Notes: generated by a model from the sequence alone, not told the origin. DNA of 64,000 nucleotides from Acidobacteriota bacterium (GCA_046331425.1 JAXLQU010000002.1:6398-70397), one strand, 5' to 3'. Counted from the first letter of the stretch, positions 12,070 through 47,657 are shown. Numbers and translations: made by a program.

Positions 12070-12143
12070 CGCCGATGGACTGAGAGGCTGACGAGGAAAC
12101 CCCAACCGCGGCCGTAACTGGCCCGGGTCTTTCCCCTCCACCA

Positions 12144-12187
12144 AGGGCCGTTGCCACGTTCGTGGCAGCGGCCCTGTTCTTTTTCAT
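12144..12187 (+). terminator. Rho-independent terminator-like hairpin downstream of the adhesin gene
   Basis: GGGCCGTTGCCACG ttcg TGGCAGCGGCCC stem-loop followed by TGTTCTTTTTCAT. Confidence 0.5.
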
Positions 12188-12332
12188 CCGGCGCTTTGGT
12201 TTACCGCACACCATGAGTGCCGCGAGATTGGATCCCCAGAACGGCCCGAACGTCACGCCGGGTGAAAGTTCGTGTACCGATTGTTGGGACACCGGCCACG
12301 AGTTGTTTGTACAGTTGTGCTCGGCTTCGGGG

Positions 12333-29008: not shown

Positions 29009-29295
29009 GCCGGCGCCGATTTCTCGTGACGTACGACATCACCAAGGACAAGGTCCGTACTCAACTCTTCAAGCTGCTGCGGGGGTGGGGTGATCATGTC
29101 CAATACAGCGTGTTCATCTGCGAACTCACCGCACGCGAAAGAGCGCGGCTCGTGGGCCGCGTGAACGACATCGTGAACCATGACGAGGACCAGGTGCTGT
29201 TTGTCGACTTGGGTCTGGCGGCGGAGGAGCCGGCGACGGTCGTGGACAGCATTGGACGTGCGTACGAGCCTCCGAGTCAGGCGCTTGTTGTGTGA
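29005..29295 (+). CDS. cas2: Cas2
   Basis: MSRRRFLVTYDITKDKVRTQLFKLLRGWGDHVQYSVFICELT. ATGA overlap with cas4-cas1. Confidence 0.9.
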   Translation: MSRRRFLVTYDITKDKVRTQLFKLLRGWGDHVQYSVFICELTARERARLVGRVNDIVNHDEDQVLFVDLGLAAEEPATVVDSIGRAYEPPSQALVV

Positions 29296-29496
29296 GAATC
29301 ACGGCCCGGGAGGCGTTGCGAGCGGCCTGGTGGTGGAGAAACTCCAGGAGCCGCCCGAGGTCTTTGAAAACACGAGGTTTAGCGGGCGCTGGTGGCGAGT
29401 TGACTCCCCGGATCGGCGACCGCTGTTGTTCGGGCGGAAAGCCGCTCGAAAACTGAAGTACAAGTGCCAGAAAAAAGGCGGGTTACTATGCCCTCC
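29296..29496 (+). promoter_or_regulatory. CRISPR leader
   Basis: Non-coding stretch between cas2 and the first repeat, ending in the A-rich CCAGAAAAAAGGCGGGTTACTATGCCCTCC. The degenerate terminal repeat lies at the opposite end of the array. Confidence 0.5.
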
Positions 29497-31971
29497 ATCT
29501 CCGCGTTCGAAAGAACGCGGCCCCATTGAAGCCCCGTCCACATTCGCGTTGGATAAAGTCTGTGGCGCGGATCTCCGCGTTCGAAAGAACGCGGCCCCAT
29601 TGAAGCTAGGTACAGGTGGTAGTCGTCAGGCACGTTCCAGAATCTCCGCGTTCGAAAGAACGCGGCCCCATGAAGCAAGGCAAACTCGCTGCCGAACGCA
29701 ACCTCGAGGATCATCTCCGCGTTCGAAAGAACGCGGCCCCATTGAAGCGAGTCCTTCTGCGAGAAGCGTGGTGGAGCCCCAACCGGATCTCCGCGTTCGA
29801 AAGAACGCGGCCCATGAAGCGCCGCGACCCCCCACAGCGCTATGCCAGTTATGCCAACATCTCCGCGTTCGAAAGAACGCGGCCCCATTGAAGCGTCGGC
29901 TCCGGGCTGGACGCTGTGCGGAGCAACGGCAGATCTCCGCGTTCGAAGAGAACGCGGCCCCATTGAAGCACGTCGGAGAGGTCGGCAAAGACTCGACGGT
30001 GGTGTATCTCCGCGTTCGAAAGAACGCGGCCCCATTGAAGCGTCTTTCCGCTGGTCGCTGGCTTTCGTCGGCGTCTGGATCTCCGCGTTCGAAAGAACGC
30101 GGCCCCATTGAAGCCCTTCTTCCTTGGCGTCGTGGAGCGTCTCGGCGTCGATCTCCGCGTTCGAAAGAACGCGGCCCCATTGGCTTGATGAAGTTATACT
30201 CGCCCGTGGGATCTACCATGATCTCCGCGTTCGAAAGAACGCGGCCCCATTGAAGCGCATCACCGGACCACGTTGGCAGCGGCAGCTGATCTCCGCGTTC
30301 GAAAGAACGCGGCCCCATTGAAGCTGCAAGGGAGCAGCTCTCACTTGAGTTCAGATGAGTATCTCCGCGTTCGAAAGAACGCGTACTAGCCGACCGGAAT
30401 GCCGGCTATGCAGTGAGTTCTTTCCGATCTCCGCGTTCGAAAGAACGCGGCCCCATTGAAGCCGGCCAGAACTCGACATCGGCGCCGCGCTCGACGCCGA
30501 TCTCCGCGTTCGAAAGAACGCGGCCCCATTGAAGCGGCCCTGCGCCCGGTGAACGCCTGCCAACGGCGGACCATCTCCGCGTTCGAAAGAACGCGCGCCC
30601 CATGCTACTCTTCCTTCGACTCAATCTTCCGCGCCTGACTCGATCTCCGCGTTCGAAAGAACGCGGCCCCATTGAAGCCCGCGATTGGAATGTCCGCTGC
30701 GGTTGGTTCGGCCGATCTCCGCGTTCGAAAGAACGCGGCCCCATTGAAGCGACCGAGAGTTACGCGGTTTTGCGTCGCGGCGCGGTGATCTCCGCGTTCG
30801 AAAGAACGCGGCCCCATTGAAGCTCCTTGTGACGCTCGAGCGCGACGTCGGTCTCGCTATCTCCGCGTTCGAAAGAACGCGGCCCCATTGAAGCTCGCAG
30901 GCCGCCGCCGCCGCAGTCGGACCGGGGACATCTCCGCGTTCGAAAGAACGCGGCCCCATTGAAGCGCGTTGCCGCCGTAGAGCAGGTTGGTGACACCGAG
31001 ATCTCCGCGTTCGAAAGAACGCGGCGGCTCGGAGTCGAGTGATCCACGTACGGATCTCGCTGAACATCTCCGCGTTCGAAAGAACGCGGCCCCATTGAAG
31101 CCCTCCGACGCGGACACCACGAGTCACCGGCGCACCCATCTCCGCGTTCGAAAGAACGCGGCCCCATGAAGCGGACGGTCCCTTCCGAGCAGCAGAAGTG
31201 CTCAGCGACATCTCCGCGTTCGAAAGAACGCGGCCCCATTGAAGCGTCCGGACCATCGATCGTCCGATGGTCGCTCGCGCGATCTCCGCGTTCGAAAGAA
31301 CGCGGCCCCATTGAAGCTGCAACAGGCCAGCGCTCGACGACAAGCCATCGCCAGATCTCCGCGTTCGAAGAACGCGGCCCCATTGAAGCCGGTACTCGGC
31401 GGTGCTGCATACGTCACGGACAGTATCTCCGCGTTCGAAAGAACGCGGCCCCATTGAAGCGCCGCTCACCTGGGAGTGCCCATCGATCACTTCTTCAGAT
31501 CTCCGCGTTCGAAAGAACGCGGCCCCATTGAAGCGTATCGGTACAGGATCACCTCACGATGGAGCGGCGACATCTCCGCGTTCGAAAGAACGCGGCCCCA
31601 TTGAAGCACTGTGCTCCACGCCATCGGATCACCTCACGCCGAGATCTCCGCGTTCGAAAGAACGCGGCCCCATTGAAGCTTCCGTTCTCGTCATGGATAA
31701 TCCTTTGTAACCGTCGATCTCCGCGTTCGAAAGAACGCGGCCCCATTGAAGCCCGCTGATTGCGCGCGCGCTGATACGCCTGCGCGTGTATCTCCGCGTT
31801 CGAAAGAACGCGGCCCCATTGAAGCACCGCTCCGCCGCCGCGGGATGCAGTGCCGTTCCCGGTATCTCCGCGTTCGAAAGAACGCGGCCCCATTGAAGCG
31901 CGCTCTAGATCGTCCATGACCAGAGCGTAGTCCTCATCTCCGCGTTCGAAAGAACGCGGGTGCCGTCTCTT
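29497..31971 (+). CRISPR. CRISPR array: 35 repeats (36 nt), 34 spacers (33-47 nt, mostly 35-38)
   Basis: Consensus ATCTCCGCGTTCGAAAGAACGCGGCCCCATTGAAGC with internal perfect 8-bp stem CCGCGTTC/GAACGCGG plus GAAA loop. 3' end ATTGAAGC resembles the I-C/I-U ATTGAAAC handle. Repeat starts at 29497, 29571, 29642 ... 31936. Terminal repeat (31936) diverges after 24 nt. Repeats at 30361, 30583 and 31001 lack the 3' third. Others carry 1-nt indels. Confidence 0.95.
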
Positions 31972-32168
31972 CCTTGCCATCAGTTCCTCCCTCAGGGGAG
32001 GGACTCTTCACGATTAGAGTGTCAACTCAAACAAGGGGGACGGGGTACCACAGGCCATACAGGCTCTGCTGCAATCATCACTTCCAAGCTCAATCGCAAG
32101 CACCAAGACGAACCGACCTGACCCGGAGCCGTAGCCAAAACGAGAAGACCGTCGCTTCGCTCCGACAG

Positions 32169-32202
32169 GTGATCACGATCAAACGGGAGCAGTGATCACG
32201 AT
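32169..32202 (+). promoter_or_regulatory. Direct repeat GTGATCACGAT x2 (each with TGATCA palindrome) upstream of the HTH/cas3 unit; candidate operator
   Basis: GTGATCACGATcaaacgggagcaGTGATCACGAT, 27-60 nt upstream of the ATG at 32229, in a locally GC-poor segment. Confidence 0.3.
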
Positions 32203-32228
32203 GACCGGAATCGCCATCGTGAGTTAGA

Positions 32229-32423
32229 ATGCCTGCGGAAATCCTGACCATCGAGGAGGTCGCCACGTTACTTAGACCCGCAGCGAAGTCCATCGATGCC
32301 TTTGTCCAGGCCGGCAAGGTTGCGGCGTTCAAGCTGTGGGGGCACTAGCGCATCAGACGCACCGAACTTGATCGGTGGGTAGACGCGCAGCCGCGCGATA
32401 GGGGGGGTGGTCGTGGCGAGTAA
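32229..32423 (+). pseudogene. Excisionase/MerR-like HTH mini-ORF interrupted by an in-frame amber codon at the conserved Trp position (or a readthrough gene)
   Basis: MPAEILTIEEVATLLRPAAKSIDAFVQAGKVAAFKLWGH-TAG-RIRRTELDRWVDAQPRD. Matches the HTH_17 pattern (LTxxEVAxLL...GxWRIRRxDLDxW) with TAG where W is expected. The ORF ends overlapping the cas3 start. Confidence 0.45.
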
Positions 32424-35400
32424 GAAGGCGCCAGCTTCTGTCTCGGATGCGGGTGACCCGCAGGCGGTGGACTGGCTCCGGGGTGCGCTCGGACTCAATG
32501 CAACGCAAGCGCCGTTTCCATGGCAGGTCGAGCTGCTTCGACGTTTTCTCCAAGACGAAGCTGTTTCTTCTATCGACATCCCTACGGGCCTCGGAAAGAC
32601 GGCCGTCATGGCCGTGTGGCTCGTCGCGCGAACACTCGGAGCAGCGCTGCCGCGACGCCTCGTCTACGTCGTCGATCGTCGGGCAGTTGTCGATCAAGCG
32701 ACCGAAGTCGCCGAAGCACTCAGCGCCTGGGTGGCGAAAGAGCCCCGTGTCGCAGACGCCCTGGGTCTTGACGATCGCCCTCTGCCCATCTCGACGCTGC
32801 GTGGCCAACATGTCGACAACCGCGCATGGCTTGAGGACCCATCGTCGCCCGCGATCATCGTCGGCACCGTCGACATGGTGGGCTCTCGGCTTCTCTTCTC
32901 GGGCTACGGCGTCTCCCCGAAGATGCGTCCCTACCATGCAGGGCTCCTCGGCGCGGACGCGCTCGTCGTTCTCGACGAGGCCCACTTGGTCCCTGCGTTC
33001 GAAGATCTCCTTCGACAGATCGAGCGTGGAACCGACACGTTCGGGCCGAAGGAACTCTCCCTTCGCGCGCTGATCCCGCCGTTCAGACTACTTCCGCTCT
33101 CGGCCACAGGACGCCAGACCGACGCTACGACGCTGACTCTCTCCGACGACGATCGAAGAGACGAGATCGTCAAGCAGCGTCTGACCGCGAAGAAGAAGCT
33201 GAGCACCGTAGATATCACCAACGCCGCGGAAGCCACCGCCACCCCGGCTGACGTCAAGAATGCTGACGATGCAGACGAGGCGACCAGGAGGAACGAGGGC
33301 CACAAGCTTGCCGGTGTTATCGCTAGGCAGGCATGGGAGTTGACGAAGCAAGGCTCGGCACGGGTGCGTTGCCTCGTGTTCTGTAACGCGCGCAAGGACG
33401 CAACCGTTGTCGCTGCCGAACTACGCAACCTGGCGAAGTCGGCCACCGGGCTCGAGCCCACCATCGAGCTCTTCGTCGGCGGACGCCGCGTGAAAGAGCG
33501 CACCCAAGCGCGCGATGCTCTCGCCCGACTCGGCTTCCTCGCGGGCAAAGCGGTGAACTTGGAGCGCTCGGCCTTTCTGATCGCAACGTCGGCCGGAGAG
33601 GTCGGAGTGGACCTCGACGCAGACCACATGGTCTGTGACCTCGTCGCGTGGGAGCGCATGGTCCAGCGCCTCGGCCGGGTGAACCGGCGAGGTGATGGAG
33701 ATGCGAATGTCATCGTCGTGGTGGACAGCGAGCCCGCGCCCTCTGACACCACGACGAAGGCCCTCGAGAAGAGGGAGGTTTCCAACGACGCGAAGGGACA
33801 ACTCGATGAGTTGACGAAGGAGCTTAACGCACTCCAGGATGCGAAAGCCTCCGTTCCGAAAGGCCAGAAGAAATCTGCCGACGCCAAAGCTGCCGAGGAG
33901 AAGCGCAGGCAAGCCGAGAAGGACCTGAAGAAGTCGATTTCCGCGTGTCAGAAGCGCATCAATGCTTTCAAGGACGCGGATGCGAAGGTCGTGGCGCGCC
34001 ATGAGGCCGCGGCTGCGCAACATCACGCCCTTCGCGCGTTGCTCACGGCGGTCGGAGAGAAGGGTAGCCTGAGCCCTGACGCCCTACTTACGCTGCGTGA
34101 CCGCCTAGACCTCGCCGATGCACTGCGCGCCGCAACGACGGTCGAGCCGCTTCGGCCCGAGCTGACGCGCCCGCTGGTCGAGGCGTGGTCGATGACTTCG
34201 CTTGACGAGCACCCGGGACGGCCTGCGGTCGATCCGTGGTTGCGCGGCTTTCGTCCGAACGATCTGCCACAGACCACGGTTGTCTGGCGACGACATCTGC
34301 CCGTGCGGGCTGACGGCTCCTTCGACGTGAAGGCGGCAAAGCAATTCTTCGAGGCTGCACCTCCTCATACGAGCGAGCAACTCGAGACTGAGACGCACCT
34401 CGTGCTCGAGTGGCTCATCAAACGCGCAGCGGCCACTAGCAAGGCCCCGGGCGATGTGGTGTTGCAGGGTGCGCAGAGGGTCGTCGCGATCGCCCTCGGA
34501 GGGCGCGGCGAGCCGAAAGGGTGGCGCACCCTCAGCGAGATCACCTTCGCGAAGAGCCAAGGCAAAAACGAGAACAATGAGGCTAAGAAGGCTCGCGAGC
34601 AACGCGTGAAGGAACTCGAAAAGCTCTTGGTCGGAGCGACGCTAATCATCGACGCGCGCCTTGGAGGACTCACTGACGGCCTCCTGAGCGAACAGACCGA
34701 CACGACCGCGGAAGCCTCGGACGATGGCTCGTCGATGTGGCTCGGTCGCCCTGACGTTGCGGGTGTGCCCGTGACGGGGTTCCGCATCCGTGTATTGGGT
34801 GCTAACGAAGAGGACCAGTCAGCGTGGCGAACGACGCCAGGAACCGGATGGGGACGACGCCATTTGTTTGTTACGAACGTAGCGGACGGTGAGCCATCTG
34901 CGGCGCTAGTGATCGAGGGGTGGTCGGGCGACGCCGCGACGGAAGATGAGCGCGCTGAAGCAAACCGTCCACAGCAACTCAATGAGCACCAGAGCTGGGC
35001 TGAAGGCTGCGCGAGGCAGATAGCCCAGCGTCTTGGCATCGAGAAGGATCCTTGCGCGGATCTCATCGCTTTCGCAGCTCGTCATCATGACGAAGGAAAG
35101 CGCGCCGCGTGGTGGCAGCGTGCGTTCAAGGCCCCCATCGATGGTCGCCCTTACGCGAAGACGAAGGGGCCGATCGACTTCGACCTCCTCGACGGCTATC
35201 GACACGAGTTGGGCTCGCTGCCGTACGTGGAGGCCCACGACGACTTCAAGGCGCTCGGCGCGGACGACCAAGATTTCGTTCTCCATCTCGTAGCGGCGCA
35301 TCATGGTTTCGCCAGACCCATGATCGGCACGAGCGGCTGCGACGATGCGCCACCGTCGATTGTCGAGGAGCGTGCGCGGGCGGTCGCGCTTCGATTCGCG

Positions 35401-35523
35401 AGGCTCTCGAGGCGATGGGGGCCGTGGGGGCTCGCATGGTGGGAGGCGCTGCTCCGCGCGGCAGACCAGACCGCGTCGCGCCGCAACCAGCGGACAGCGA
35501 CAGCGCGGAAGGATCTGCCGTGA
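32407..35523 (+). CDS. cas3: Cas3 helicase with C-terminal HD nuclease domain (I-G/I-U architecture)
   Basis: GTG start. Walker A IPTGLGKTAV. DEAH box VVLDEAHL. C-terminal HD motifs AARHHDEGK ... HLVAAHHGF. Confidence 0.9.
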   Translation: MVVASKKAPASVSDAGDPQAVDWLRGALGLNATQAPFPWQVELLRRFLQDEAVSSIDIPTGLGKTAVMAVWLVARTLGAALPRRLVYVVDRRAVVDQATEVAEALSAWVAKEPRVADALGLDDRPLPISTLRGQHVDNRAWLEDPSSPAIIVGTVDMVGSRLLFSGYGVSPKMRPYHAGLLGADALVVLDEAHLVPAFEDLLRQIERGTDTFGPKELSLRALIPPFRLLPLSATGRQTDATTLTLSDDDRRDEIVKQRLTAKKKLSTVDITNAAEATATPADVKNADDADEATRRNEGHKLAGVIARQAWELTKQGSARVRCLVFCNARKDATVVAAELRNLAKSATGLEPTIELFVGGRRVKERTQARDALARLGFLAGKAVNLERSAFLIATSAGEVGVDLDADHMVCDLVAWERMVQRLGRVNRRGDGDANVIVVVDSEPAPSDTTTKALEKREVSNDAKGQLDELTKELNALQDAKASVPKGQKKSADAKAAEEKRRQAEKDLKKSISACQKRINAFKDADAKVVARHEAAAAQHHALRALLTAVGEKGSLSPDALLTLRDRLDLADALRAATTVEPLRPELTRPLVEAWSMTSLDEHPGRPAVDPWLRGFRPNDLPQTTVVWRRHLPVRADGSFDVKAAKQFFEAAPPHTSEQLETETHLVLEWLIKRAAATSKAPGDVVLQGAQRVVAIALGGRGEPKGWRTLSEITFAKSQGKNENNEAKKAREQRVKELEKLLVGATLIIDARLGGLTDGLLSEQTDTTAEASDDGSSMWLGRPDVAGVPVTGFRIRVLGANEEDQSAWRTTPGTGWGRRHLFVTNVADGEPSAALVIEGWSGDAATEDERAEANRPQQLNEHQSWAEGCARQIAQRLGIEKDPCADLIAFAARHHDEGKRAAWWQRAFKAPIDGRPYAKTKGPIDFDLLDGYRHELGSLPYVEAHDDFKALGADDQDFVLHLVAAHHGFARPMIGTSGCDDAPPSIVEERARAVALRFARLSRRWGPWGLAWWEALLRAADQTASRRNQRTATARKDLP

Positions 35524-36497
35524 TGACACATACGACTGCATCCATCCCCGTCGACCTCAAGAGCCCGGGTCAGGTGCTCGCCTGCGTGGGCTTCATCGAG
35601 GCGGCAGAAGTACTGCTGGGCGGGGTCGAGGCGCATTTTGATTGGAGCGACGCGCAAGCGAAGTTCGTGCTTCGCGCTGACGGTAACGAAAACCCGTTCG
35701 AGGTCGTCCTTGAGTTCTTGTCGAAGGCGAAGATCAGCGAACTGACGCCCGTTGGCTACGTCGAGGGTGGTGCAGCCGACGGTGACGACAGTGAAGAGGA
35801 AGACGCCACGCCCAGCGAACCTGAAGACGGTGATGAGTCCGACGACGACCCGGGCGAGGTGCTAGGGCGCGTCACGACCCCAGCATTTCCTTTGGGCGAA
35901 GGCGACCGGAATGCACTTCCCGTCCAGCTCGTGCACGAAGGACGTTGCCTCACCGTCAGTCATTGGGCCGACGGCTCGTCGCGGGACGACTTCAAGCTTT
36001 ACTCGGGCAACCGCTCGGCCAATCGCATCGCTACGCAGATGCTCCAAGGTGTGCGTGCGAAGCTCAAGAAGAACCAGTCGAGCGGTGACCTCAAAAATCG
36101 AGGGTTGCAGCAGCTTTGGCGGGAGAACCGAGCGGCGCTCCTGAAGGCACCGTTCGACTTGGTCACGCCGATGGGCGGTAGCTTCAACTTCGATCCACGC
36201 GGCGCCTGGACCGCGATCGACGCGGGCTACTCACCAAACACGCAGAAAGACGGCATCGCGGCCTCGCCGGTTGTCGAGATCCTGGCAGCGATCGGGCTCG
36301 AACACGCGCGCCCTGACCAATACGAGACTCGCGAGGTTCGTTACGCAGTCTGGGGACAGCCGTTGCCGCCAATGCTCGCGCGCGCTGCGCTTGCAGGCGC
36401 CGGTGTGAAGCTGTCGGTGCGCCGGTTCCAGTTCGAGCTCGATCTCTCCGGCAAGAACAAAGTCACGACGTTCGCACAAGAGGAGACCCAACCATGA
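35523..36497 (+). CDS. Putative Cascade subunit 1 (about 324 aa; Csb/Cas7- or Cas11/Cas8u-like, unassigned), acidic low-complexity insert
   Basis: ATG overlaps the cas3 stop (TGATG). Start MTHTTASIPVDLKSPGQVLACVGFIEAAEVL. Acidic tract GGAADGDDSEEEDATPSEPEDGDESDDDPGE. G-rich segment PMGGSFNFDPRGAW. No confident family motif recognised. Confidence 0.5.
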   Translation: MTHTTASIPVDLKSPGQVLACVGFIEAAEVLLGGVEAHFDWSDAQAKFVLRADGNENPFEVVLEFLSKAKISELTPVGYVEGGAADGDDSEEEDATPSEPEDGDESDDDPGEVLGRVTTPAFPLGEGDRNALPVQLVHEGRCLTVSHWADGSSRDDFKLYSGNRSANRIATQMLQGVRAKLKKNQSSGDLKNRGLQQLWRENRAALLKAPFDLVTPMGGSFNFDPRGAWTAIDAGYSPNTQKDGIAASPVVEILAAIGLEHARPDQYETREVRYAVWGQPLPPMLARAALAGAGVKLSVRRFQFELDLSGKNKVTTFAQEETQP

Positions 36498-37786
36498 CAT
36501 CGAAGGCCGCAGAAACCACCACTCCGTCGTTGAGCGAGGAGACCACCAAGCTCTTCGATTCTTGGCTCGCCAGCGAGGGGCCAGTTGCTCTCCGTCTGCG
36601 CCAGAAGCTCCGCCCCGTCGAGGCTGATGAGAGCGGTCGCGGCGTCATCTTCCCGCCGACCTATGCCGACATCGGCTACAACATCGATACGCTCGCGGAC
36701 GGAACGCGCGTCGCGACGATCGACACGGTCGGCTCGCAGGCTAACCGTCTGGAGCCGATCTTCAAGAAGGCAGGTGAGGGGCAGCCCGAGAATCCGCTTG
36801 CGAGCCTCGTTCCGCAGATCGAGATCGTCTTGCACAAGGCCGGTGGCAAGAAGGGAAAGAAGAAGGAGACCGACGCGGCGGGCGAGGCCGACGCAACTGA
36901 GCACGTCGAGAAGCGTTCGCTCCTCGACCTCGCGCACCGCAGTGCGGACGCCGTCGTGCTCGCGAGCCCGACGCTTGCGCCTGAGATCGCCAAGGCATTC
37001 GAGGCACTGCGCAGCAAGGGGAACGCGGCTCCGCTCGCAGCCATCGCGCCGACCTCGCTGGTCTTTGGTGTGTGGGATTCGCGTGGCGGTACCGGCGAGA
37101 AACGACCTCGCTTGGTTCGCTCGATCATCCGCGCCTGGGACGTCGAGGTCCTTCACAGCGCCGCACAGTTCAACTCGGTGTGGAAGGCCCTGAGTGAGGA
37201 GCAGCAGAAGGAGCTCGCTGACGAGGAGAAGAAGAAGGGGAAGCTGGAGCTGTCGGCGGTCGGCCTGAAGGACGCTCCATCCACCTTTCGAAAGACCGAC
37301 AAGATCCCGCAGTTCGTCGCGGGGGCCCCGAACCCAGAAGCGCGCGTACTCGGTGGTGTCCTCGCGAAGGGGGCCATCGAACGCGACGTCACGATCAACC
37401 TCGTCGCGCTCCGTGGCATCCGTGGCAAGGACGCCGCCGAGACGACCGAGGTTCAGAAGTACCTATTGGGTCTCGCCCTTCTAGCGGCCACGGTCGACCT
37501 TGAGTTGTTCCTCCGCGAGGGATGCCTGCTCCGTTACGCGGACCAGGCGGACAAGTGGACGGCGGTACCACGCCGCGGTGAGCCTGGCGACGCAGACCAG
37601 GTGACGCTCCCAAAGGATCTCGTCGCCTATGCGACGGCGGCAGCCGCACCGTTCAAGGCGAAGTGGCCTGATGGGCTGAAGAAGGACGGCGCCCCCGTCC
37701 TCGAGCATGAGTTCGACATAAAGAAGGCAAAGGAGCTGCTCGCGAAGAAGAAGGACGACGAGACACCGGCGACCCCCCCGGCATGA
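36494..37786 (+). CDS. Putative Cascade subunit 2 (430 aa; Cas7-like backbone candidate), Lys-rich insert
   Basis: ATGA overlap with the upstream gene. TIDTVGSQANRLEPIF and SLVFGVWDSRGGTGEKRPRLVRSIIRAWD recall Cas7 RNA-binding loops. K-rich insert GGKKGKKKETD. Assignment tentative. Confidence 0.5.
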   Translation: MTSKAAETTTPSLSEETTKLFDSWLASEGPVALRLRQKLRPVEADESGRGVIFPPTYADIGYNIDTLADGTRVATIDTVGSQANRLEPIFKKAGEGQPENPLASLVPQIEIVLHKAGGKKGKKKETDAAGEADATEHVEKRSLLDLAHRSADAVVLASPTLAPEIAKAFEALRSKGNAAPLAAIAPTSLVFGVWDSRGGTGEKRPRLVRSIIRAWDVEVLHSAAQFNSVWKALSEEQQKELADEEKKKGKLELSAVGLKDAPSTFRKTDKIPQFVAGAPNPEARVLGGVLAKGAIERDVTINLVALRGIRGKDAAETTEVQKYLLGLALLAATVDLELFLREGCLLRYADQADKWTAVPRRGEPGDADQVTLPKDLVAYATAAAAPFKAKWPDGLKKDGAPVLEHEFDIKKAKELLAKKKDDETPATPPA

Positions 37787-39975
37787 CGCACTACCTGACC
37801 ATTAATGTGCGCGCCCATGAGGGGCGGTACCACGGAGCAGGCGACGAGCTGCCGTCGCCATTTCGCTTGTTTCAGTCGCTCATAGCGGGCGCCGGGATCA
37901 GCGGACCGCTCGACGATCATACGAAGAGGGCGCTCGTCTGGCTCGAAGGGCTCCCGGATGCCCCGCTCGTCGCGTCACCGCGTCTCGCGCGAGGTCAGAC
38001 GGTCACGATGTTCATGCCGAACAACGACCTTGACAAGTTCGGCGGCGACGTTCGGAACATCGCGAAGACGCGTGGTGCGCAGAAGGTCTGGAGGCCGCGG
38101 TATTTCGACGCGTCGGTGCCATGGATCTACGCGTGGCCCTTCGCCAACGTTGACGAGGGAGACACGCACGCCAAGAAGATCTGCGCGCTCGCCGACAAGC
38201 TCTACCAACTTGGGCGGGGTGTCGACATGGCCTGGGCCTGGGGTGACCTTCTCAACGAAGCCGCGCTCGAAGCGCGGCTCGCAGAGTACAACGGCGTCGT
38301 TCGGCGACCGAGCGTGGGCGATGGCCTTAAGCTCGCATGTCCGAGCGAGGGTTCGTTCGAGAGTCTCGAACGCCGATATCACTCTCCGAGATTCCGGACC
38401 GAGAGCGGCCAGCGCGTCTTCGTCCAAAAGCCGAAGCCGAGTTATCGACAGATCACTTACGAGAGCCCGCCTGTTCGCCACGTCTTCGAGCTTCGAACTT
38501 CAACTGACTCGGAGCGTCGTGTTGCGTGGCCCCTTGTGGGCGCCTCGGCGCTCGTCGTAGCGGCACGTGAAGCGGCGCGCGCACGACTGTGCAGCGCCAT
38601 GCCGAATCGGATCCATGATGTGGAGCTACACCTCGTGGGTCGTAAGCCCGATGGTACGAACGCGGTGCCTGCTGAGAGTCGCGTGCGGATCATCCCAATC
38701 CCATCCATCGGGATGCACTATGCCGACCGCGCGATTCGGCGTCTCCTCGTCGAGATCCCTGCGGCGTGCCCGCTTCGCAGCGAGGATGTTCGCTGGGCGT
38801 TCTCGGGTGCGGAGCTCTTCGATCCAGACACCGGCGAGGTGAAGGACGTGCTGCTGTCGCCATCAGACGAGGACGACATGCTCCGGCACTACGGCGTTGG
38901 CGCCGGGGCGCGAGTGTTCCGGTCTGTCACGCCAGTGGTACTCCCCGAGGAGGGCAAGCGTCGGCGCATCGAGCCTACTCGAAGGCTCTCGGAGGCCAAG
39001 CTTGGCCTCGAGCGCGTCGTAGAGATTTCGGGAGCGAGAGCGGCAGTCGTTCAAGCGCTCCGTCACGCGGGCGTGAGCGCTCCAGCGGAGAGCGTTCGCC
39101 TGCAGCGCGAGCCTTTCGAGGCGGCCGGCTCTCGCGTCGAGCCGTTTGCCGAGGGAACACGGTTTGAGAAGGAGCGCCTCTGGCACGTCGAGATTACGTT
39201 CGGCGTCCCGGTCGAGGGCCCGCTGTTGCTCGGTGATGGGCGCTTTCTCGGGCTAGGGCTCATGGCACCAGTGAGAGATGTTGTGCCGGGGGTACATGCA
39301 CTCGTAATCACTGAGGGCCTCGCCGGTCACGCCGAGACGCTCGATGTTGTACGAGCGCTGCGCCGTGCGGTCATGGCGAGAGTGCAGTCAACTCTCGGCA
39401 CGCGCGAGCGGCTCGCACCGTTCTTCAGCGGTCACGCAGAGGACGGCGCCCCTGTTCGGCGGTCTCGAACTTCGCATCTCTCGTTCGCCTTCGAGCCGGA
39501 CTCGCGAAGGCTACTCATCCTCGCTCCTCATGTGGTCGAGCGACGCGCGCCGATGTCTGATGAGCTCGACCACCTCCGCACTCTTGATGCTGCGCTCGTA
39601 GGGTTCTGCGAGCTGCACGCGGGGTACGCTGGAGTCTTCTCCGTTTCCCCTGCTGCGATCGAAAAACTCCAGGACTCGCTCTTCGGGCATTCGCGCGTGT
39701 GGAGGACCATCACGCCATACGTCGTCACGCGCCATGCGAAGGGCGGCGCAGCGACGGAGGCACTTGCAGCCGATGTCCGCGCGGAGTGCCGTCGCCTCGG
39801 ACTGCCCGAGCCCAGAGTGGAATCAAGAAACGTTCGGGGCGCATCTGGGATTGGACTCACGGGCTACGCGACGCTGTTTTTCGAGCGGCGCGTCGCGGGA
39901 CCCCTAGTGCTCGGACGAACTCGGTATCTCGGAGGCGGGTTCTTCCGCCCCGACGAGGAACCCAACCAACCATGA
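37783..39975 (+). CDS. Putative Cascade large subunit (730 aa): two RAMP-like G-rich loops, so a Cas5-Cas6 (Csb1-like) fusion and/or Cas8u (Csx17-like)
   Basis: ATGA overlap. N-terminus MTHYLTINVRAHEGRYHGAGDELPSPFRLFQSL (RAMP-like first strand). G-rich loops GDGRFLGLGLMAPV (about aa 480) and TRYLGGGFF at the extreme C-terminus, as in Cas5/Cas6. Confidence 0.5.
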   Translation: MTHYLTINVRAHEGRYHGAGDELPSPFRLFQSLIAGAGISGPLDDHTKRALVWLEGLPDAPLVASPRLARGQTVTMFMPNNDLDKFGGDVRNIAKTRGAQKVWRPRYFDASVPWIYAWPFANVDEGDTHAKKICALADKLYQLGRGVDMAWAWGDLLNEAALEARLAEYNGVVRRPSVGDGLKLACPSEGSFESLERRYHSPRFRTESGQRVFVQKPKPSYRQITYESPPVRHVFELRTSTDSERRVAWPLVGASALVVAAREAARARLCSAMPNRIHDVELHLVGRKPDGTNAVPAESRVRIIPIPSIGMHYADRAIRRLLVEIPAACPLRSEDVRWAFSGAELFDPDTGEVKDVLLSPSDEDDMLRHYGVGAGARVFRSVTPVVLPEEGKRRRIEPTRRLSEAKLGLERVVEISGARAAVVQALRHAGVSAPAESVRLQREPFEAAGSRVEPFAEGTRFEKERLWHVEITFGVPVEGPLLLGDGRFLGLGLMAPVRDVVPGVHALVITEGLAGHAETLDVVRALRRAVMARVQSTLGTRERLAPFFSGHAEDGAPVRRSRTSHLSFAFEPDSRRLLILAPHVVERRAPMSDELDHLRTLDAALVGFCELHAGYAGVFSVSPAAIEKLQDSLFGHSRVWRTITPYVVTRHAKGGAATEALAADVRAECRRLGLPEPRVESRNVRGASGIGLTGYATLFFERRVAGPLVLGRTRYLGGGFFRPDEEPNQP

Positions 39976-40377
39976 CCGCGCCCTTGAGGCGGACGAGATC
40001 TTCGCAAGGGCGAGCGCTACAGGATCGTTGCCGGACGGCGCGCAGTATCACCTTGCGACTTGCGCAGCATAGCTACCGAGCATGCTGCTGCGGGCAGTGC
40101 CGCTTCGTTCCCGAAGTTCGCTCAGCGCGCGCTCGCTCCCATTGAGTGACCTTCCGCAGCGATTGCCTGCATTCCTCAGTTGCCGCCTTGGAATGACGGG
40201 CCCCGTCTCCAAGTGAGCCACCCCAGAAACCCGAAGCCAACAATTAGTTGACATTCCCAGCCCACCTGCGTACACCCCTCCCGGCGCCCTGGGCTCGTCG
40301 CTCCTCCTCTCTCCTCGTGACCGCAGGTAGATCGCGTCCCAGTCGCCAGCGTTCGGAATCACTCGGAGGCCAGGAAC

Positions 40378-42164: not shown

Positions 42165-44699
42165 TTAGAGTCCCTTCAAGGCCTCACGCCCCGCCTTGAC
42201 CCGCGCATCGTCCTCGCCTGCGGTCGCGGCGAGCGCGGCGACGCCGTCTTGCAACAGCGACTTGGCCTCGGCGGTGCGCAAACCGCGCGCGACTAGATGA
42301 CTCCCGAGCGCGATCATTGTGCTGGCGGTGTTGGCGTCCTTGTCGCCGAACGCCTTGCGCCGGATGCGCAACGCTTCCCGAATCTGCGCTTCGGCACCGA
42401 CTCCGTCGCGGCGCGCGTCGAGCACGCCAGCCAGCGCCATGGTGACGTACGCGAGATCGGGGTGATCGGGCCCCATCCCGCCGCGCATCAAACCGATTCC
42501 CTCACGAAGGGCTGCTTCCGCCTCCGCGAGTCGATTTGCACGCGCCATCACCGTCCCCATGTTGCAGTACGTACGACCGACCGTGGGATCGTTCGGTCCC
42601 AGCGACTCTCTGCGGATCGCTGCGACGTTGCGCAGCAGATCGATCGTTTTGTCGGTCTGACCCTGTCGGAAGTAAACCGCTCCCAGGTTCTCGAGTGCTA
42701 CCGCGACTTGCGGGTGTTTGTCACCCAACATCCTCTTGTCCTGCTCGACGACTGCTTTCAGCATCGCCTCGGCGCCGGCGAAGTCCCCCTTTTGCATACG
42801 CACCAGACCCAAGCTGTTCTGCGCGTACGCGAGCATCGGGTTGTCGGGCCCCAGAGTTTTCTCGAAGAGCTTCGTCGACTCCAAGCACGCCGCCTCTGCT
42901 TCGTCGAACTTCCCGCGTGTGGAGAGAATGTCGCAGAGCACCTTCAGGCTCTCGGCCATGTAGTACGTCGGCGGGCCGGTTTGCGAGCGGCCAACGTTGA
43001 TCGCTTCGCGTATCGGCGCCTCGGCCTCGTCGATCTTCCCCGAGAAATAGAGGGCCAAGGCGAGGTCATCGAGTCGTTCCGACAGCCGTGGATCGGTCGG
43101 ATCCGCGCCACGCTGTGCCTCGATTCCGGAGCGCGCCGCTGCGATTGCGTCCTCGTATCGGCCGGTCAGATGGAGCAACCGGCTGAGCCGGCCCCAACTC
43201 GTCGCGGTGTCGGCGTCGTTCGGTCCAAGATGCTTGACGCGCAGCTCGATCGCACGGCGAATCAGCGGCTCGGCCTTCTCGTATTCGCCGAGATTCATGT
43301 ACGTTGCCGAGATCGAATCGAGCGTTGCCGCCGCGACCACGGGCTGCGAGGTGAACTGCGCCTCGATCCGTGGGATCGATTTTTCGAGCGCCTCGAGCAC
43401 CGTGATCTTCCGCTCTCCTCCGGCATACGGGTTGGGAGTTTCGAGCGTTGCTTGCAGGAACTGATTGATCGCGGTCGCTTTTTCGGTTTCGGACTTGGCG
43501 CGGTCGCGCTCTTCGGCGATGCGCCTGGCTTGATACGTCATCGTCACGGCGGTCCCGAGCAGCAGAACGAGCAGCGATGCCGCGAACGCGGTAGGGAGCG
43601 GATTGCGCCGCACGAGCTTGCGGAGTTGATCGACGGTGCTGGGCGGCCGCGCCAGGATCGGTTGATCGGCGAGGTAGCGGTGCAGGTCATCGGCCAGCGC
43701 GGCGGCACTGCTATATCGATCGTCGGGATTCTTCTCGATCGCTTTGCTGACGATGGTTTCGAGGTCGGGGTCGAGTCGTCGCGCGCCCTTCCACACGTTG
43801 CGCAACGGAACGGGGCGCGCTTGGTCGATGGTGCGCAGCGCCTCGAGGATCGACATCGACGACAGCGCATGCGGGAGCATCGACGAAAGCATCTCGTAGA
43901 GGATCACGCCGAGCGCATAGACATCGGTGCGCAGGTCGATCTGTTCGGGAATCCCGCGCGCTTGCTCGGGGCTCATGTAGTTGAGCGTTCCGCGGATCGC
44001 TCCGACCTCGGTCACTTGGGTGACGTTGACGTCGCCGTCGGTGATTCGTGCCAGACCGAAGTCGAGAATCTTGACGTGCGATTCGACGCTCCCTGACTCC
44101 GAGTGACTGCCGGCGTGCGTTGCATCGCCGACGATCAGATTCGATGGCTTGAGATCGCGGTGGATTACGCCCCGTTGATGTGCGTAGTGGACCGCCTCGG
44201 CGATGCCGGCCAGCAGGGAGAGTCGTCGCCGAACTTCATCGGGGTCGAGTGTCTGCCGCTCACGCAGGTGCTCGGAGAGTGTGGCGCCGCGAACGAGTTC
44301 CATCGCGAAGTAGTGGCGACCCTCCGCCGTGCGCCCCGAGTCGTAGATCCGCGCGATCATCGGATGCTCGAGCCGCGCCAACACCTCGACCTCGCGGCGG
44401 AACATCGCGAGCTGAAGCTCGCTGATCGACGCCTCGCCACGAATCACCTTGAGCGCGACGATGCGTTTGAGCGACTGCTGCTCCGCTTCGTAGACGACTC
44501 CCATGCCGCCGCGACCGAGCAGGCCGAGGATTCGGTAATCGCCGATTCGATCGGGCAGCTCGGGCGCGACCTGTTCGCGCTCCTCGCCGAGTTGCGTGGC
44601 GTCATCGTCTTTGGAGTGAGCCGCAGGGACCAGCTTCGTTTCCGGTAACTCTGGGTCTGGTCCGTCCTTCTCGATCATCCGACCTCGTCTCCCTGGCAA
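42165..44699 (-). CDS. Serine/threonine protein kinase with TM segment and C-terminal TPR repeats
   Basis: YRILGLLGRGGMGVVYEA, VALKVI, HRDLKPSNLIVG, DFGLAR, SPEQ. TM LLVLLLGTAVTMTY. Many TPR units. Confidence 0.85.
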   Translation of the reverse strand: MPGRRGRMIEKDGPDPELPETKLVPAAHSKDDDATQLGEEREQVAPELPDRIGDYRILGLLGRGGMGVVYEAEQQSLKRIVALKVIRGEASISELQLAMFRREVEVLARLEHPMIARIYDSGRTAEGRHYFAMELVRGATLSEHLRERQTLDPDEVRRRLSLLAGIAEAVHYAHQRGVIHRDLKPSNLIVGDATHAGSHSESGSVESHVKILDFGLARITDGDVNVTQVTEVGAIRGTLNYMSPEQARGIPEQIDLRTDVYALGVILYEMLSSMLPHALSSMSILEALRTIDQARPVPLRNVWKGARRLDPDLETIVSKAIEKNPDDRYSSAAALADDLHRYLADQPILARPPSTVDQLRKLVRRNPLPTAFAASLLVLLLGTAVTMTYQARRIAEERDRAKSETEKATAINQFLQATLETPNPYAGGERKITVLEALEKSIPRIEAQFTSQPVVAAATLDSISATYMNLGEYEKAEPLIRRAIELRVKHLGPNDADTATSWGRLSRLLHLTGRYEDAIAAARSGIEAQRGADPTDPRLSERLDDLALALYFSGKIDEAEAPIREAINVGRSQTGPPTYYMAESLKVLCDILSTRGKFDEAEAACLESTKLFEKTLGPDNPMLAYAQNSLGLVRMQKGDFAGAEAMLKAVVEQDKRMLGDKHPQVAVALENLGAVYFRQGQTDKTIDLLRNVAAIRRESLGPNDPTVGRTYCNMGTVMARANRLAEAEAALREGIGLMRGGMGPDHPDLAYVTMALAGVLDARRDGVGAEAQIREALRIRRKAFGDKDANTASTMIALGSHLVARGLRTAEAKSLLQDGVAALAATAGEDDARVKAGREALKGL

Positions 44700-44798
44700 T
44701 GACGAGCGCGATCATACACGCCACAGGTACTGCCCACGCTCACACGCTCGAATCGATACAGCCCAGCGAAACACAGAGCCTGGTAAGATCCCGGCGCC

Positions 44799-47657
44799 TT
44801 GGAACACACACTCGTCGCAGGGGATGTCATATCCCACTACCGGATCGTGGGGGCGCTGGGATCCGGCGGCATGGGCGAGGTGTACCTGGCCCAAGATCTC
44901 ACCCTCGAAAGGAGCGTCGCCCTCAAAGTCCTCCCGCCGAGCCTCGTCCGGAATGAAGAGCGACTCCGTCGCTTCGTGGTCGAGGCGAAGTCAGCATCGT
45001 CGCTGAACCATCCGAGCATCGTGACGATCCACGAGATCGGCTCGGGCTCGATCGAGCGCGACGGGCAATCGCTGGAGTCGATCCACTTCATCGTGATGGA
45101 GCGGATCGACGGGCACACGCTGGCCGAGGTGATCCACGTCGACAAGGAAGATCTGCGACGCCTATTGGGATATCTGGCCCAGGCGGCGGACGGCATCGCC
45201 AAGGCGCATGCGGCCGGGATCGTTCACCGCGACCTCAAGCCGGGGAACATCATGGTTTCGCGTGACGGCTTCGCGAAGGTGCTCGACTTCGGGCTCGCCA
45301 AGCTGATCGAGTCCAGAGCGGCGGACCCGCAAGCCAGCGCTGCGCCCACCCAGATCGATCAGCACACGGGCGCAGGAACGATCGTCGGCACGGTCGGCTA
45401 CATGTCGCCGGAGCAGGTGCAAGGAAAATCTGTCGATCACCGCTCCGACATCTTCTCGTTCGGCTGCATCCTCTATGAAGCCGTGACACGTCAACGCGCG
45501 TTCGAAGCCGACTCCGCTGTCGACACGATGCACAAGATCCTCCACGACGCGCCGATCGAGTCGCACCAGTTGAATCCGAAAGCTCCTGCCGACCTGCGCC
45601 GCTTGGTACGGCGGTGCCTTGCCAAAAACCCCGACCAGCGCCTTCAATCGATGAAAGACCTGGCGATTGAACTGCGCGAGATCGCTGACAACTACGAGTC
45701 TCTTTCAAACTCGACGAGTTCGGGAAGCGGTGTCAGCAGCGTGGGTGTCGCCGCCCGGCCCACGAGGCGAAGTGCGTGGCAGATCGGCGCGACGATCGTT
45801 GCAATTGTCGTGATCGCGGGGCTGGCGATCAGCCTCTTCAGCCTGATTCGTTCTCGCGATCCCCAACCTGTCGCCGCGGCGCCGGCTGCCGGCCTCAAGC
45901 GCACGAGCATTTCGGGGCGCGAAGGGATAACCGGCGTGGCGATCTCCGGCGACGGACGGTATCTCGCCTATCCGATCGTCTCGTCAGAATCGACATCGAT
46001 CTGGGTCCGTCAGATCACGACGGGGAGCGAGGTCCAAGTCGTGCCTCCGCGCGAGGTGGGCGTGATATCCCTTCGCTTCTCGCCCAATGGCGACTACGTC
46101 TATTACATCGTGATCGAGCCGGACCGCCCGGGCCTGACAACACTCGAGCGGGTGCCGACACTCGGCGGTCCGACGCGCAAGCTGTTTTCCGATGTCGGTT
46201 ATGGATTCAGCCTGACGCAAGACGGTAAGAGCGTCTGCTTCGTCCGAGCGAAGACCAAGTCAGCAGAGACCTCGGCGATGGTGCGCGACATCGAGTTGGG
46301 TCAAGAAAAGACACTCGCGACGGTTGCCGCGCCGTTGGACTTCGCCTGCCCTCCGGTGTTGTCTCCCGACGGCAAGACTTTCGTCACGGCGATTCACACG
46401 GCGGAGAAGGGGATCCACGGTCAGTTCGCTGCAATCGACGCAGCGAGTTTGGCCCAGACCCGATTCGGCCCCACCGGATGGGAAGTTCGCAGTTCGGTTT
46501 GGCTTCCCGATGGGAAGGGGATCGTGACCTCGTCGTTTCGGTATGGCGAGACCGAGGCGGCGCAACTGTTCTTCATGTCGTATCCCGAGGGACGCCACCA
46601 GAGGATCACGAACGACTCCAACGACTATGTCGATCTCGATCTAACCTCGGACGGCGCGACGATCTCCGCCCTCCGCGCGGTCAGGGTGGCGAACGTCTGG
46701 AGCACACCCATTGAAGGGAAGGCCAGACCCAAGCAACTCACCTTCAACGCCACCAGCGACAATGCGGTTGGCAACTTCGTTTTGGCAGGCGACGGCGCGA
46801 TCGTTTTCACCGCCCCAGCCGATCATCACAACCATGTCTTCACGATCGCGCCGGATGGGCAGAATCTGCGGCAGCTCACCTCAGGCACGAGCGATGAGTC
46901 GATCCAGAGACTGCTCCCCACGGGCGATCTCGTCGTGACACGCATGGGGGAAGATCGCACCGCGCACATCGCACTGGCGGATCGTGACGGGGGCAATCCT
47001 CGACCACTCGTGCGCGGCAACGGGGAGTGGTTCATGGATCTCAGCCCCGATGGCAAGACGTTGATATACCTGCGCGTCGATACGCCGCGCGCGCTTTGGG
47101 CGGTGCCGGTCGCCGGAGGCGAATCGCGCAAGATTGCATCCGACTTCAACTTTGGCGCTGTCGTGTCGCCGGACAGCCGCTTGGTTGCCTATTTGGCTCC
47201 ACAGGAACTCGAGGGGAGCTCTCCAACGACGTGCGTCGTGGTGCCGATCGAAGGGGGAGCGCCGACCGCGACGTTCACGTGGCCAACGCAATCCTCGCCA
47301 CCGAAGTGGACGCCCGACGGGAAGGGGCTTTCGTTCCTCGTCGCGAAGGACAAGTCGAGCAACGTCTTCCTTCAGCCTCTGGCCGGCGGACCGCCTCATC
47401 CTGTGACGCGACTGACCGAGGGCTGGATTGGCGCCTACCTCTGGTCGCCCGACGGAAAGCGTCTCGTGTTGCAACGCACGCTCGCGAACGTCACCAACCT
47501 GTGGAGTGTCGGCACCGACGGGCGCGCGCCCGAGCCGATCACCGATTTCCCGACCGGTGCGTTCTTCGGGATCGATATCTCCAAGGACGGGAAAACGCTC
47601 TACTTCAATTACGGCAGCGAGAGTAAGGACATCGTGCTTCTGAACAACTTCCGCTAG
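44799..47657 (+). CDS. Serine/threonine protein kinase fused to TolB-like beta-propeller domain
   Basis: YRIVGALGSGGMGEVYLA, HRDLKPGNIMV, DFGLAK. TM IGATIVAIVVIAGLAISLF. C-terminal repeated SPDG(K)xL propeller blades. Confidence 0.85.
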   Translation: MEHTLVAGDVISHYRIVGALGSGGMGEVYLAQDLTLERSVALKVLPPSLVRNEERLRRFVVEAKSASSLNHPSIVTIHEIGSGSIERDGQSLESIHFIVMERIDGHTLAEVIHVDKEDLRRLLGYLAQAADGIAKAHAAGIVHRDLKPGNIMVSRDGFAKVLDFGLAKLIESRAADPQASAAPTQIDQHTGAGTIVGTVGYMSPEQVQGKSVDHRSDIFSFGCILYEAVTRQRAFEADSAVDTMHKILHDAPIESHQLNPKAPADLRRLVRRCLAKNPDQRLQSMKDLAIELREIADNYESLSNSTSSGSGVSSVGVAARPTRRSAWQIGATIVAIVVIAGLAISLFSLIRSRDPQPVAAAPAAGLKRTSISGREGITGVAISGDGRYLAYPIVSSESTSIWVRQITTGSEVQVVPPREVGVISLRFSPNGDYVYYIVIEPDRPGLTTLERVPTLGGPTRKLFSDVGYGFSLTQDGKSVCFVRAKTKSAETSAMVRDIELGQEKTLATVAAPLDFACPPVLSPDGKTFVTAIHTAEKGIHGQFAAIDAASLAQTRFGPTGWEVRSSVWLPDGKGIVTSSFRYGETEAAQLFFMSYPEGRHQRITNDSNDYVDLDLTSDGATISALRAVRVANVWSTPIEGKARPKQLTFNATSDNAVGNFVLAGDGAIVFTAPADHHNHVFTIAPDGQNLRQLTSGTSDESIQRLLPTGDLVVTRMGEDRTAHIALADRDGGNPRPLVRGNGEWFMDLSPDGKTLIYLRVDTPRALWAVPVAGGESRKIASDFNFGAVVSPDSRLVAYLAPQELEGSSPTTCVVVPIEGGAPTATFTWPTQSSPPKWTPDGKGLSFLVAKDKSSNVFLQPLAGGPPHPVTRLTEGWIGAYLWSPDGKRLVLQRTLANVTNLWSVGTDGRAPEPITDFPTGAFFGIDISKDGKTLYFNYGSESKDIVLLNNFR

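Follow-up and report, generated by a model that had tools for sequence, protein, structure and literature searches.

The DNA analysed here, referred to as the window, is a stretch of 64,000 nucleotides from an Acidobacteriota bacterium (GCA_046331425.1, JAXLQU010000002.1:6398-70397), and positions are counted from its first nucleotide. By gene content, positions 27272-39975 are identified as a complete type I-G (formerly I-U) CRISPR-Cas locus of the Cas8g2/GSU0052 variant. The gene order from 5′ to 3′ is cas4/1, cas2, a 35-repeat array, cas3g, cas8g2, cas7g and csb2. It is very probable that this is an ordinary type I-G locus, that the low-complexity tracts of its effector proteins are lineage-variable loops, and that its Csb2 is a long form with two paralogous Cas6-like modules. 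The genes and the array are as follows.

27272-29008, plus strand: cas4/cas1 fusion, 578 aa, adaptation module; matches PADLOC Cas1g end to end with 587 bits
29005-29295, plus strand: cas2, 96 aa; PADLOC Cas2g, 94.6 bits, and Pfam CRISPR_Cas2
29497-31971, plus strand: CRISPR array, 35 copies of the 36-nt repeat ATCTCCGCGTTCGAAAGAACGCGGCCCCATTGAAGC; 25 exact copies against 0 expected by chance
32407-35523, plus strand: cas3g, 1038 aa, N-terminal helicase and C-terminal HD nuclease; TIGR02621, 581.5 bits (cut-off 400)
35523-36497, plus strand: cas8g2, 324 aa, reduced large subunit of the GSU0052/Csb3 family; TIGR04106, 148.6 bits (cut-off 125)
36494-37786, plus strand: cas7g/csb1, 430 aa, backbone subunit; TIGR02570, 101.8 bits (cut-off 38), and PF09617, 109.4 bits (cut-off 25)
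37783-39975, plus strand: csb2, 730 aa, signature gene (Cas5-Cas6 fusion); TIGR02165, 312.7 bits (cut-off 45)

The family calls for Cas3g, Cas8g2, Cas7g and Csb2 were made against curated NCBIfam cut-offs, all of which were exceeded. Every component that defines the Cas8g2 variant of type I-G was found: csb2, Cas7g/Csb1, a large subunit of the Cas8g2 family, Cas3g, and a Cas4-Cas1 fusion with Cas2 and an adjoining array. The fusion protein contains the Pfam domains Cas_Cas4 (aa 15-218) and Cas_Cas1 (aa 250-532), and the HD domain match of Cas3g lies at aa 865-1009. Residues 5-307 of Cas8g2 cover model positions 1-268 of the 282 in TIGR04106, and on comparison Cas8g2 had no similarity to Cas8g1/Csx17. 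Searches of PDB sequences, with single sequences and with profiles, returned nothing relevant for Cas8g2, Cas7g or Csb2. The cas3 stop codon TGA and the next ATG share one base, A (TGATG, 35521-35525), and the two following junctions are ATGA overlaps, at 36494-36497 between cas8g2 and cas7g and at 37783-37786 between cas7g and csb2.

The initial annotation, made from the sequence alone, had described the products of the last three genes as subunits 1-3 of an unusual I-U/I-G effector start/stop-coupled to cas3. All three open reading frames (ORFs), every peptide it quoted, the overlapping junctions and the effector type were confirmed, as was the Cas7-like nature of subunit 2, which exceeds the cut-offs of both of its family models. 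The word "unusual" does not hold, as all three proteins pass type I-G family cut-offs and are already so named in GenBank. Identical proteins from an Acidobacteriota metagenome-assembled genome (MAG) are deposited there as MFN7964533.1-MFN7964535.1 under the names type I-U Cas8c, Csb1/Cas7u and Csb2; MFN7964533.1 is the Cas8g2 protein and MFN7964534.1 the Cas7g/Csb1 protein. Subunit 1, for which Csx17 had been considered, belongs instead to Cas8g2 (GSU0052 family). Subunits 1 and 2 essentially match standard families over their full length, with inserts in variable loops, and in this respect the proposed novelty falls away; the standard models account for subunit 3 only over aa 4-497.

The Pfam and TIGR models of Csb2 thus leave the last 233 residues outside the full-length alignment. 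The protein contains the peptides MTHYLTINVRAHEGRYHGAG at its N-terminus, LLLGDGRFLGLGLM at aa 481-494 and RYLGGGFF at aa 714-721, and it can be divided into three domains.

37783-38469, plus strand: N domain of Csb2, aa 1-229, Cas5-like; positions 1-223 of TIGR02165/PDLC00995, 116 bits
38470-39273, plus strand: middle domain of Csb2, aa 230-497, Cas6-like, with a G-rich loop at aa 484-492; second half of the Csb2 models, 136-148 bits
39274-39975, plus strand: C-terminal domain of Csb2, aa 498-730, Cas6-like, with a G-rich loop at aa 711-719; Cas6 half of Cas56g models

When the C domain was searched alone, it matched the Cas6 half of several Cas56g models, such as positions 222-430 of PDLC01410 (E 3e-21). 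The first and second halves of these models are matched by the N and middle domains, which between them span the Csb2 models completely. Comparison of the middle and C domains with hhalign, using 90 long-form sequences, gave 98.3% over 199 columns (E 1.5e-14), and by these profiles the two Cas6-like modules are paralogous. Experimentally characterised Csb2 proteins have two domains and ~460-545 aa, compared with three modules and 730 aa in the window. A family of 49 two-domain Csb2 proteins of 505-545 aa, including that of Frigoriglobus tundricola, was aligned with each window domain. The values were 98.0% for the N domain and 99.5% (E 2.3e-23) for the C domain, and the middle domain gave only a partial alignment (96.9%, 117 columns). 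A gap of ~234 aa separates the two aligned blocks, and the two-domain proteins thus have no middle module. These alignments identify the C-terminal module as the counterpart of the Cas6 domain in two-domain Csb2, and the middle module as an extra paralogue inserted between the Cas5-like and Cas6 domains. The initial annotation had suggested that subunit 3 could be a repeat-associated mysterious protein (RAMP) combining Cas5 and Cas6 with extra domains; this was borne out, the extra part being the Cas6-like paralogue. Proteins of ~500 aa from the representative search were considered as two-domain relatives and rejected; they are N-terminally truncated long forms in which both G-rich loops are present.

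AlphaFold modelling, which had been proposed as a check, was run for Csb2 with the 90-sequence alignment and gave a mean predicted local distance difference test (pLDDT) of 91.1 and a predicted template modelling score (pTM) of 0.85. A beta-alpha-beta-beta-alpha-beta pattern is repeated in each module, and both Cas6-like copies end in a G-rich loop. In a Foldseek comparison of the model with the PDB, Cas6 proteins head the list of Cas6 and other RAMP matches, which comprises P. furiosus Cas6, Csf5, Cas6e, Cas6b and Csm4-type chains. In the predicted structure, aa 230-497 and aa 498-730 each appear to have the Cas6 arrangement of two RNA recognition motif (RRM)/ferredoxin folds, the last strand being preceded by a G-rich loop, and we infer which hit belongs to which module. 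A literature search for a three-domain or duplicated Csb2, or for a middle Cas6-like module, found no description. Two further proteins, P0158 (964 aa) and P0161 (977 aa), have a three-module Csb2 followed by a C-terminal domain of ~240 aa with a Fic-type HPFxDxNGR motif and appear to be Csb2-Fic fusions. In a Gemmataceae MAG (L078, 10001-14315) csb2 is split, with the N and middle domains in one ORF of 507 aa. A separate ORF in the same locus (11750-12676) encodes a Cas6-like domain whose type is that of two-domain Csb2 (PDLC01778, 184 bits), and the next ORF has a Cas10-like GGDD motif.

The long form of Csb2 is widespread. When one genome per species was scanned, 488 genomes proved to encode Csb2 relatives, and the best 80 loci, from many phyla, were retained; they include isolates such as Nannocystis exedens, Rhodanobacter and Allorhodopirellula. 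Long-form Csb2 is present in all 80 (as the split gene in L078), Cas7g in 77 and Cas8g2 in 72. The order cas3g-cas8g2-cas7g-csb2 is kept wherever there is enough upstream sequence, that is, in 72 of the best 80 loci, and in all 72 testable loci long-form Csb2 adjoins a Cas8g2 of ~300-325 aa. With clustering at 90% identity, the window Csb2 shares 69-100% identity with more than 120 clusters, and a search with the C domain gave 623 clusters at 50% identity. A plasmid search added only two long-form Csb2 genes, both from Cereibacter. The two-domain Csb2 forms inspected pair with large Cas8g1/Csx17 proteins. Frigoriglobus has a Cas8g1 of 724 aa with a Csb2 of 536 aa, whereas the window has a Cas8g2 of 324 aa with a Csb2 of 730 aa; in Mycobacterium innocens, Cas8g has ~698 aa and Csb2 ~460 aa (PMC10333696). 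Because the sizes of Cas8g and Csb2 are inversely related, the extra module of Csb2 may compensate for the small Cas8g2, as this relation suggests.

The array is preceded on the cas2 side by a leader of ~200 nt (29296-29496), and its spacers are ~36-38 nt long. The fold of the 36-nt repeat (-14.2 kcal/mol) is an 8-bp stem closed by a GAAA loop; next come CCCC and the 8-nt handle ATTGAAGC, which the initial annotation had already pointed out. A 7-8-bp stem, 4 nt and ATTGAAGC are common to 36 arrays of related loci, although the stem sequences differ. The Cas8g1-type locus of Frigoriglobus (L081) has the same repeat layout as the window. An Rfam search with the repeat gave no match. In the type I-G system of Thioalkalivibrio, Csb2 cuts 4 nt 3′ of the stem, leaves an 8-nt handle and stays on the hairpin, and Cas3 is integral (PMC9638904). 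The repeat layout in the window fits a CRISPR RNA (crRNA) whose 8-nt 5′ handle would be released by a cut 4 nt 3′ of the hairpin, as in that system. Single-nucleotide indels change ATTGAAGC to ATGAAGC at 29642 and 31138 and CCCC to CCC at 29787, and alter the length of the loop at 29933 and 31355. The repeats at 30151, 30361, 30573 and 31001 are without their last 9-13 nt, the handle included, and the last copy (31936) is degenerate. The variant repeats could be MAG assembly or homopolymer errors, or genuinely aberrant repeats.

Some observations count against treating the locus as ordinary. Of the 35 repeats, ten carry indels or are truncated. In Csb2, a His inside the G-rich loop is found in 49 of 49 two-domain proteins (H520 of P0289, the Frigoriglobus protein), and this position aligns with Tyr715 of the window Csb2. 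At the same position, 55 of the 90 long forms have His, 18 have Tyr and 14 have Phe. The published catalytic residue of Thioalkalivibrio (Tsu) Csb2 is H503, with the two-domain boundary at R260 (PMC9638904), and that of B. animalis Csb2 is H520. Judging from its distance to the C-terminus, the two-domain loop His is likely the equivalent of both. Other residues of the 90 long forms are much more constant. In the C domain, H551 is found in 90/90, H565 in 87/90 and R650/H651 in 85/90; in the middle domain, R487 is found in 90/90, H468 in 89/90 and H428 in 87/90. H468 and D485 of the middle domain were considered as the published catalytic His and Asp and then dropped; the invariant loop His of the two-domain family aligns with the C domain.

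These residues raise the possibility that a core role has passed to the middle Cas6-like module. This module could act as the crRNA endonuclease, through the near-invariant W467-H468 and R487, or as a structural replacement for the ~400 aa that Cas8g2 lacks relative to Cas8g1; either way, the C module would mainly hold the hairpin. H428, H468 and R487 are better conserved than the loop position of the C domain, and both the size trade-off between Cas8g and Csb2 and the pairing of long Csb2 with Cas8g2 in 72 of 72 testable loci agree with such a role. However, the C domain retains the invariant H551 and the near-invariant H565 and H651, and the middle domain itself has Phe or Tyr at the loop position that is His in the short forms. 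The single-hairpin repeat layout is also shared by long- and short-form loci and gives no pointer to a second RNA site. We therefore regard a core role of the middle module as a tentative alternative. The same tentative standing applies to the broader proposal that long-form Csb2 is an undescribed triple-RAMP subunit, in which the inserted, strongly conserved Cas6-like paralogue (aa 230-497) makes up for the reduced large subunit or now serves as the centre of catalysis or of handle binding. A triple-RAMP subunit would explain why Tyr or Phe is tolerated at the canonical loop His in ~36% of long forms.

It is also conceivable, although very unlikely, that Csb2 of the window clade is catalytically dead and that the precursor crRNA (pre-crRNA) is cut by Cas7g, through a His-Arg motif, or by a host RNase. 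Of the 11 closest relatives, whose identity to the window Csb2 is 69% or more, 10 carry Tyr at the loop position. In Cas7g, the His-Arg pair of the LAHRS motif (aa ~145-149) is kept in every ortholog inspected. Judged by motif, this pair is probably the counterpart of H122/R123 in B. animalis Csb1, a protein reported in a preprint to be a second pre-crRNA nuclease in Bifidobacterium (10.1101/2022.08.19.504415). Against this, other His residues are invariant or near-invariant in both Cas6-like modules, and in the work on Thioalkalivibrio no cleavage by Cas7 was seen (PMC9638904). An array of 35 repeats, 25 of them identical, also suggests a working system. The reading that we prefer remains an ordinary type I-G locus with a long-form Csb2.

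The low-complexity tracts stressed in the initial annotation lie in Cas8g2 and Cas7g. Cas8g2 carries the acidic tract GGAADGDDSEEEDATPSEPEDGDESDDDPGE at aa 82-112, and Cas7g contains the peptides VGSQANRLEPIF at aa 79, GGKKGKKKETD at aa 117, FGVWDSRGG... at aa 191 and EEKKKGKLE at aa 244. Two variable loops were delimited.

35766-35858, plus strand: acidic low-complexity loop of Cas8g2, aa 82-112; 16 D/E in 31 residues
36842-36913, plus strand: variable, Lys-rich hairpin loop of Cas7g, aa 117-140; flanked by the conserved strands LVPQIEI and SLLDLAHRS

The acidic tract is real: its D/E content compares with 11% in the remaining protein (corrected P ~1e-5). Across 69 orthologs the equivalent loop has 10-52 aa and is acidic in 19, often as PPKK, a D/E run and FPAK at the same site in several phyla. 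Many orthologs carry a short, non-acidic loop there, and the tract is therefore dispensable for the family. It is a hypervariable, lineage-variable surface loop and no new domain. The three Lys patches are individually within chance (corrected P at least 0.45). The first patch of Cas7g lies in a hairpin loop that is 8-39 aa long in 74 orthologs, and this Lys-rich tract is likewise a lineage-variable surface loop without a new domain. The second patch is not an insert, because its segment, a helix, has a constant length (37-45 aa) and a conserved charged consensus. Thus, of the inserts proposed, the acidic tract and the first Lys patch stand as sequence in variable loops, and the second Lys patch does not. 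The hairpin loop of Cas7g holds a CxxCxxC...C cluster of at least four Cys in 17 of the 74 orthologs, including L018, L021 and L078. This cluster resembles a zinc knuckle, in place of which the window clade has the Lys-rich low-complexity stretch (window loop aa 112-142, 36827-36919).

The tracts could instead be functional additions, the Cas8g2 loop serving as a DNA mimic for auto-inhibition of the DNA-binding face or as a tuner of Cas3 recruitment, and the Cas7g loop as an extended thumb that grips RNA or DNA. The statistical significance of the acidic tract and its recurrence at one site in several phyla are consistent with this, and the Lys loop lies between two conserved strands, the position expected of a Cas7 thumb. 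However, many Cas8g2 orthologs do without acidic residues at that site, and the Lys patches are not beyond chance, one of them being a helix of conserved length. Pairing of charges was also sought in 69-74 orthologs, and acidic Cas8g2 loops did not co-occur with long basic Cas7g loops. A functional role of the tracts is therefore improbable, and we continue to read them as lineage-variable loops.

By analogy with the characterised type I-G systems, the mechanism of the window locus may be as follows. The array would be transcribed from the leader on the cas2 side, and Csb2 would bind each repeat hairpin and cut 4 nt downstream of the stem, which would leave the 8-nt 5′ handle AUUGAAGC. Cas7g would polymerise along the ~36-38-nt spacer, with Cas8g2 as the reduced large subunit, and the target DNA would be degraded by the helicase and C-terminal HD nuclease of Cas3g.

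The impact on annotation is small, as the locus is recognisable and already annotated as type I-G. The three-module architecture of Csb2 is widespread but has been little discussed, and current Pfam/TIGR models leave its last 233 residues uncovered. In the Cas8g2 branch of type I-G, which is without a structure and has seen little biochemistry, a minimal large subunit is combined with a Csb2 that has two Cas6-like modules, and the likely catalytic residue of the studied two-domain enzymes is not conserved. Engineering compact Cas8g2-type Cascades or solving their structures depends on which module cuts and which one holds the crRNA.

Other features of the window were also noted. Cas3g has a Lys/Glu/Ala-rich segment, probably a coiled coil, at aa ~449-538 between the helicase and the C-terminal region. 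At 39972-40073, the csb2 stop codon forms a further ATGA overlap, and the ORF downstream has only 33 codons and no support. The flanks of the locus (23940-26699 and 42165-47657) contain host genes unrelated to CRISPR. They encode a SEC-C-motif/DUF6930 protein and two Ser/Thr kinases, of which the first has TPR repeats and the other WD40/PD40 repeats.

In comparison with known proteins, the Csb2 model resembles stand-alone Cas6 (P. furiosus 3i4h, Cas6e in 4tvx and Cas6b 4z7k) in Foldseek with probabilities of 0.98-1.00 and target TM-scores of 0.40-0.48, and both have the two-RRM fold and a C-terminal G-rich loop. The two differ in that no sequence similarity is detectable between them and in that the window protein has two tandem modules behind a Cas5-like domain. 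The best-studied type I-G effector is the Cascade of Thioalkalivibrio sulfidiphilus (Cas8g1, Cas7, Csb2 and Cas3; PMC9638904). It shares with the window a 36-nt repeat in which 4 nt and an 8-nt handle accompany a hairpin, a Csb2 that fuses a Cas5-like domain to Cas6, and a C-terminal HD domain in Cas3. Unlike the window locus, it has a large Cas8g1 and a two-domain Csb2, whereas the window has a small Cas8g2, an extra Cas6-like module and a Tyr at the position that is likely equivalent to the catalytic His. The Cas8g1/Csx17-type system of Frigoriglobus tundricola has N and Cas6 domains homologous to the N and C domains of the window Csb2, but its Csb2 lacks the ~234-aa middle module and has the invariant loop His where the window has Tyr715. 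Its 724-aa Cas8g1 is accompanied by a Cas3g of 797 aa, compared with 1038 aa in the window, and by a separate NF049934 "Cas3-extension family" gene.

Among characterised systems, the closest is the I-U/I-G locus of Geobacter sulfurreducens, which comprises cas3, cas8u2 (GSU0052), cas7 (GSU0053), cas5/6 (GSU0054), cas4/1 and cas2. The Geobacter Cas8u2 system gave interference in E. coli with a TTN protospacer adjacent motif (PMC6547450). The gene set is the same in Geobacter and the window, both have a Cas8g2-type large subunit and a cas4-cas1 fusion, and the window proteins match all the family models named after the Geobacter genes above the cut-off. The window differs in the position of its array, which lies between cas2 and cas3, and in the acidic and Lys-rich loops, which are specific to its lineage.

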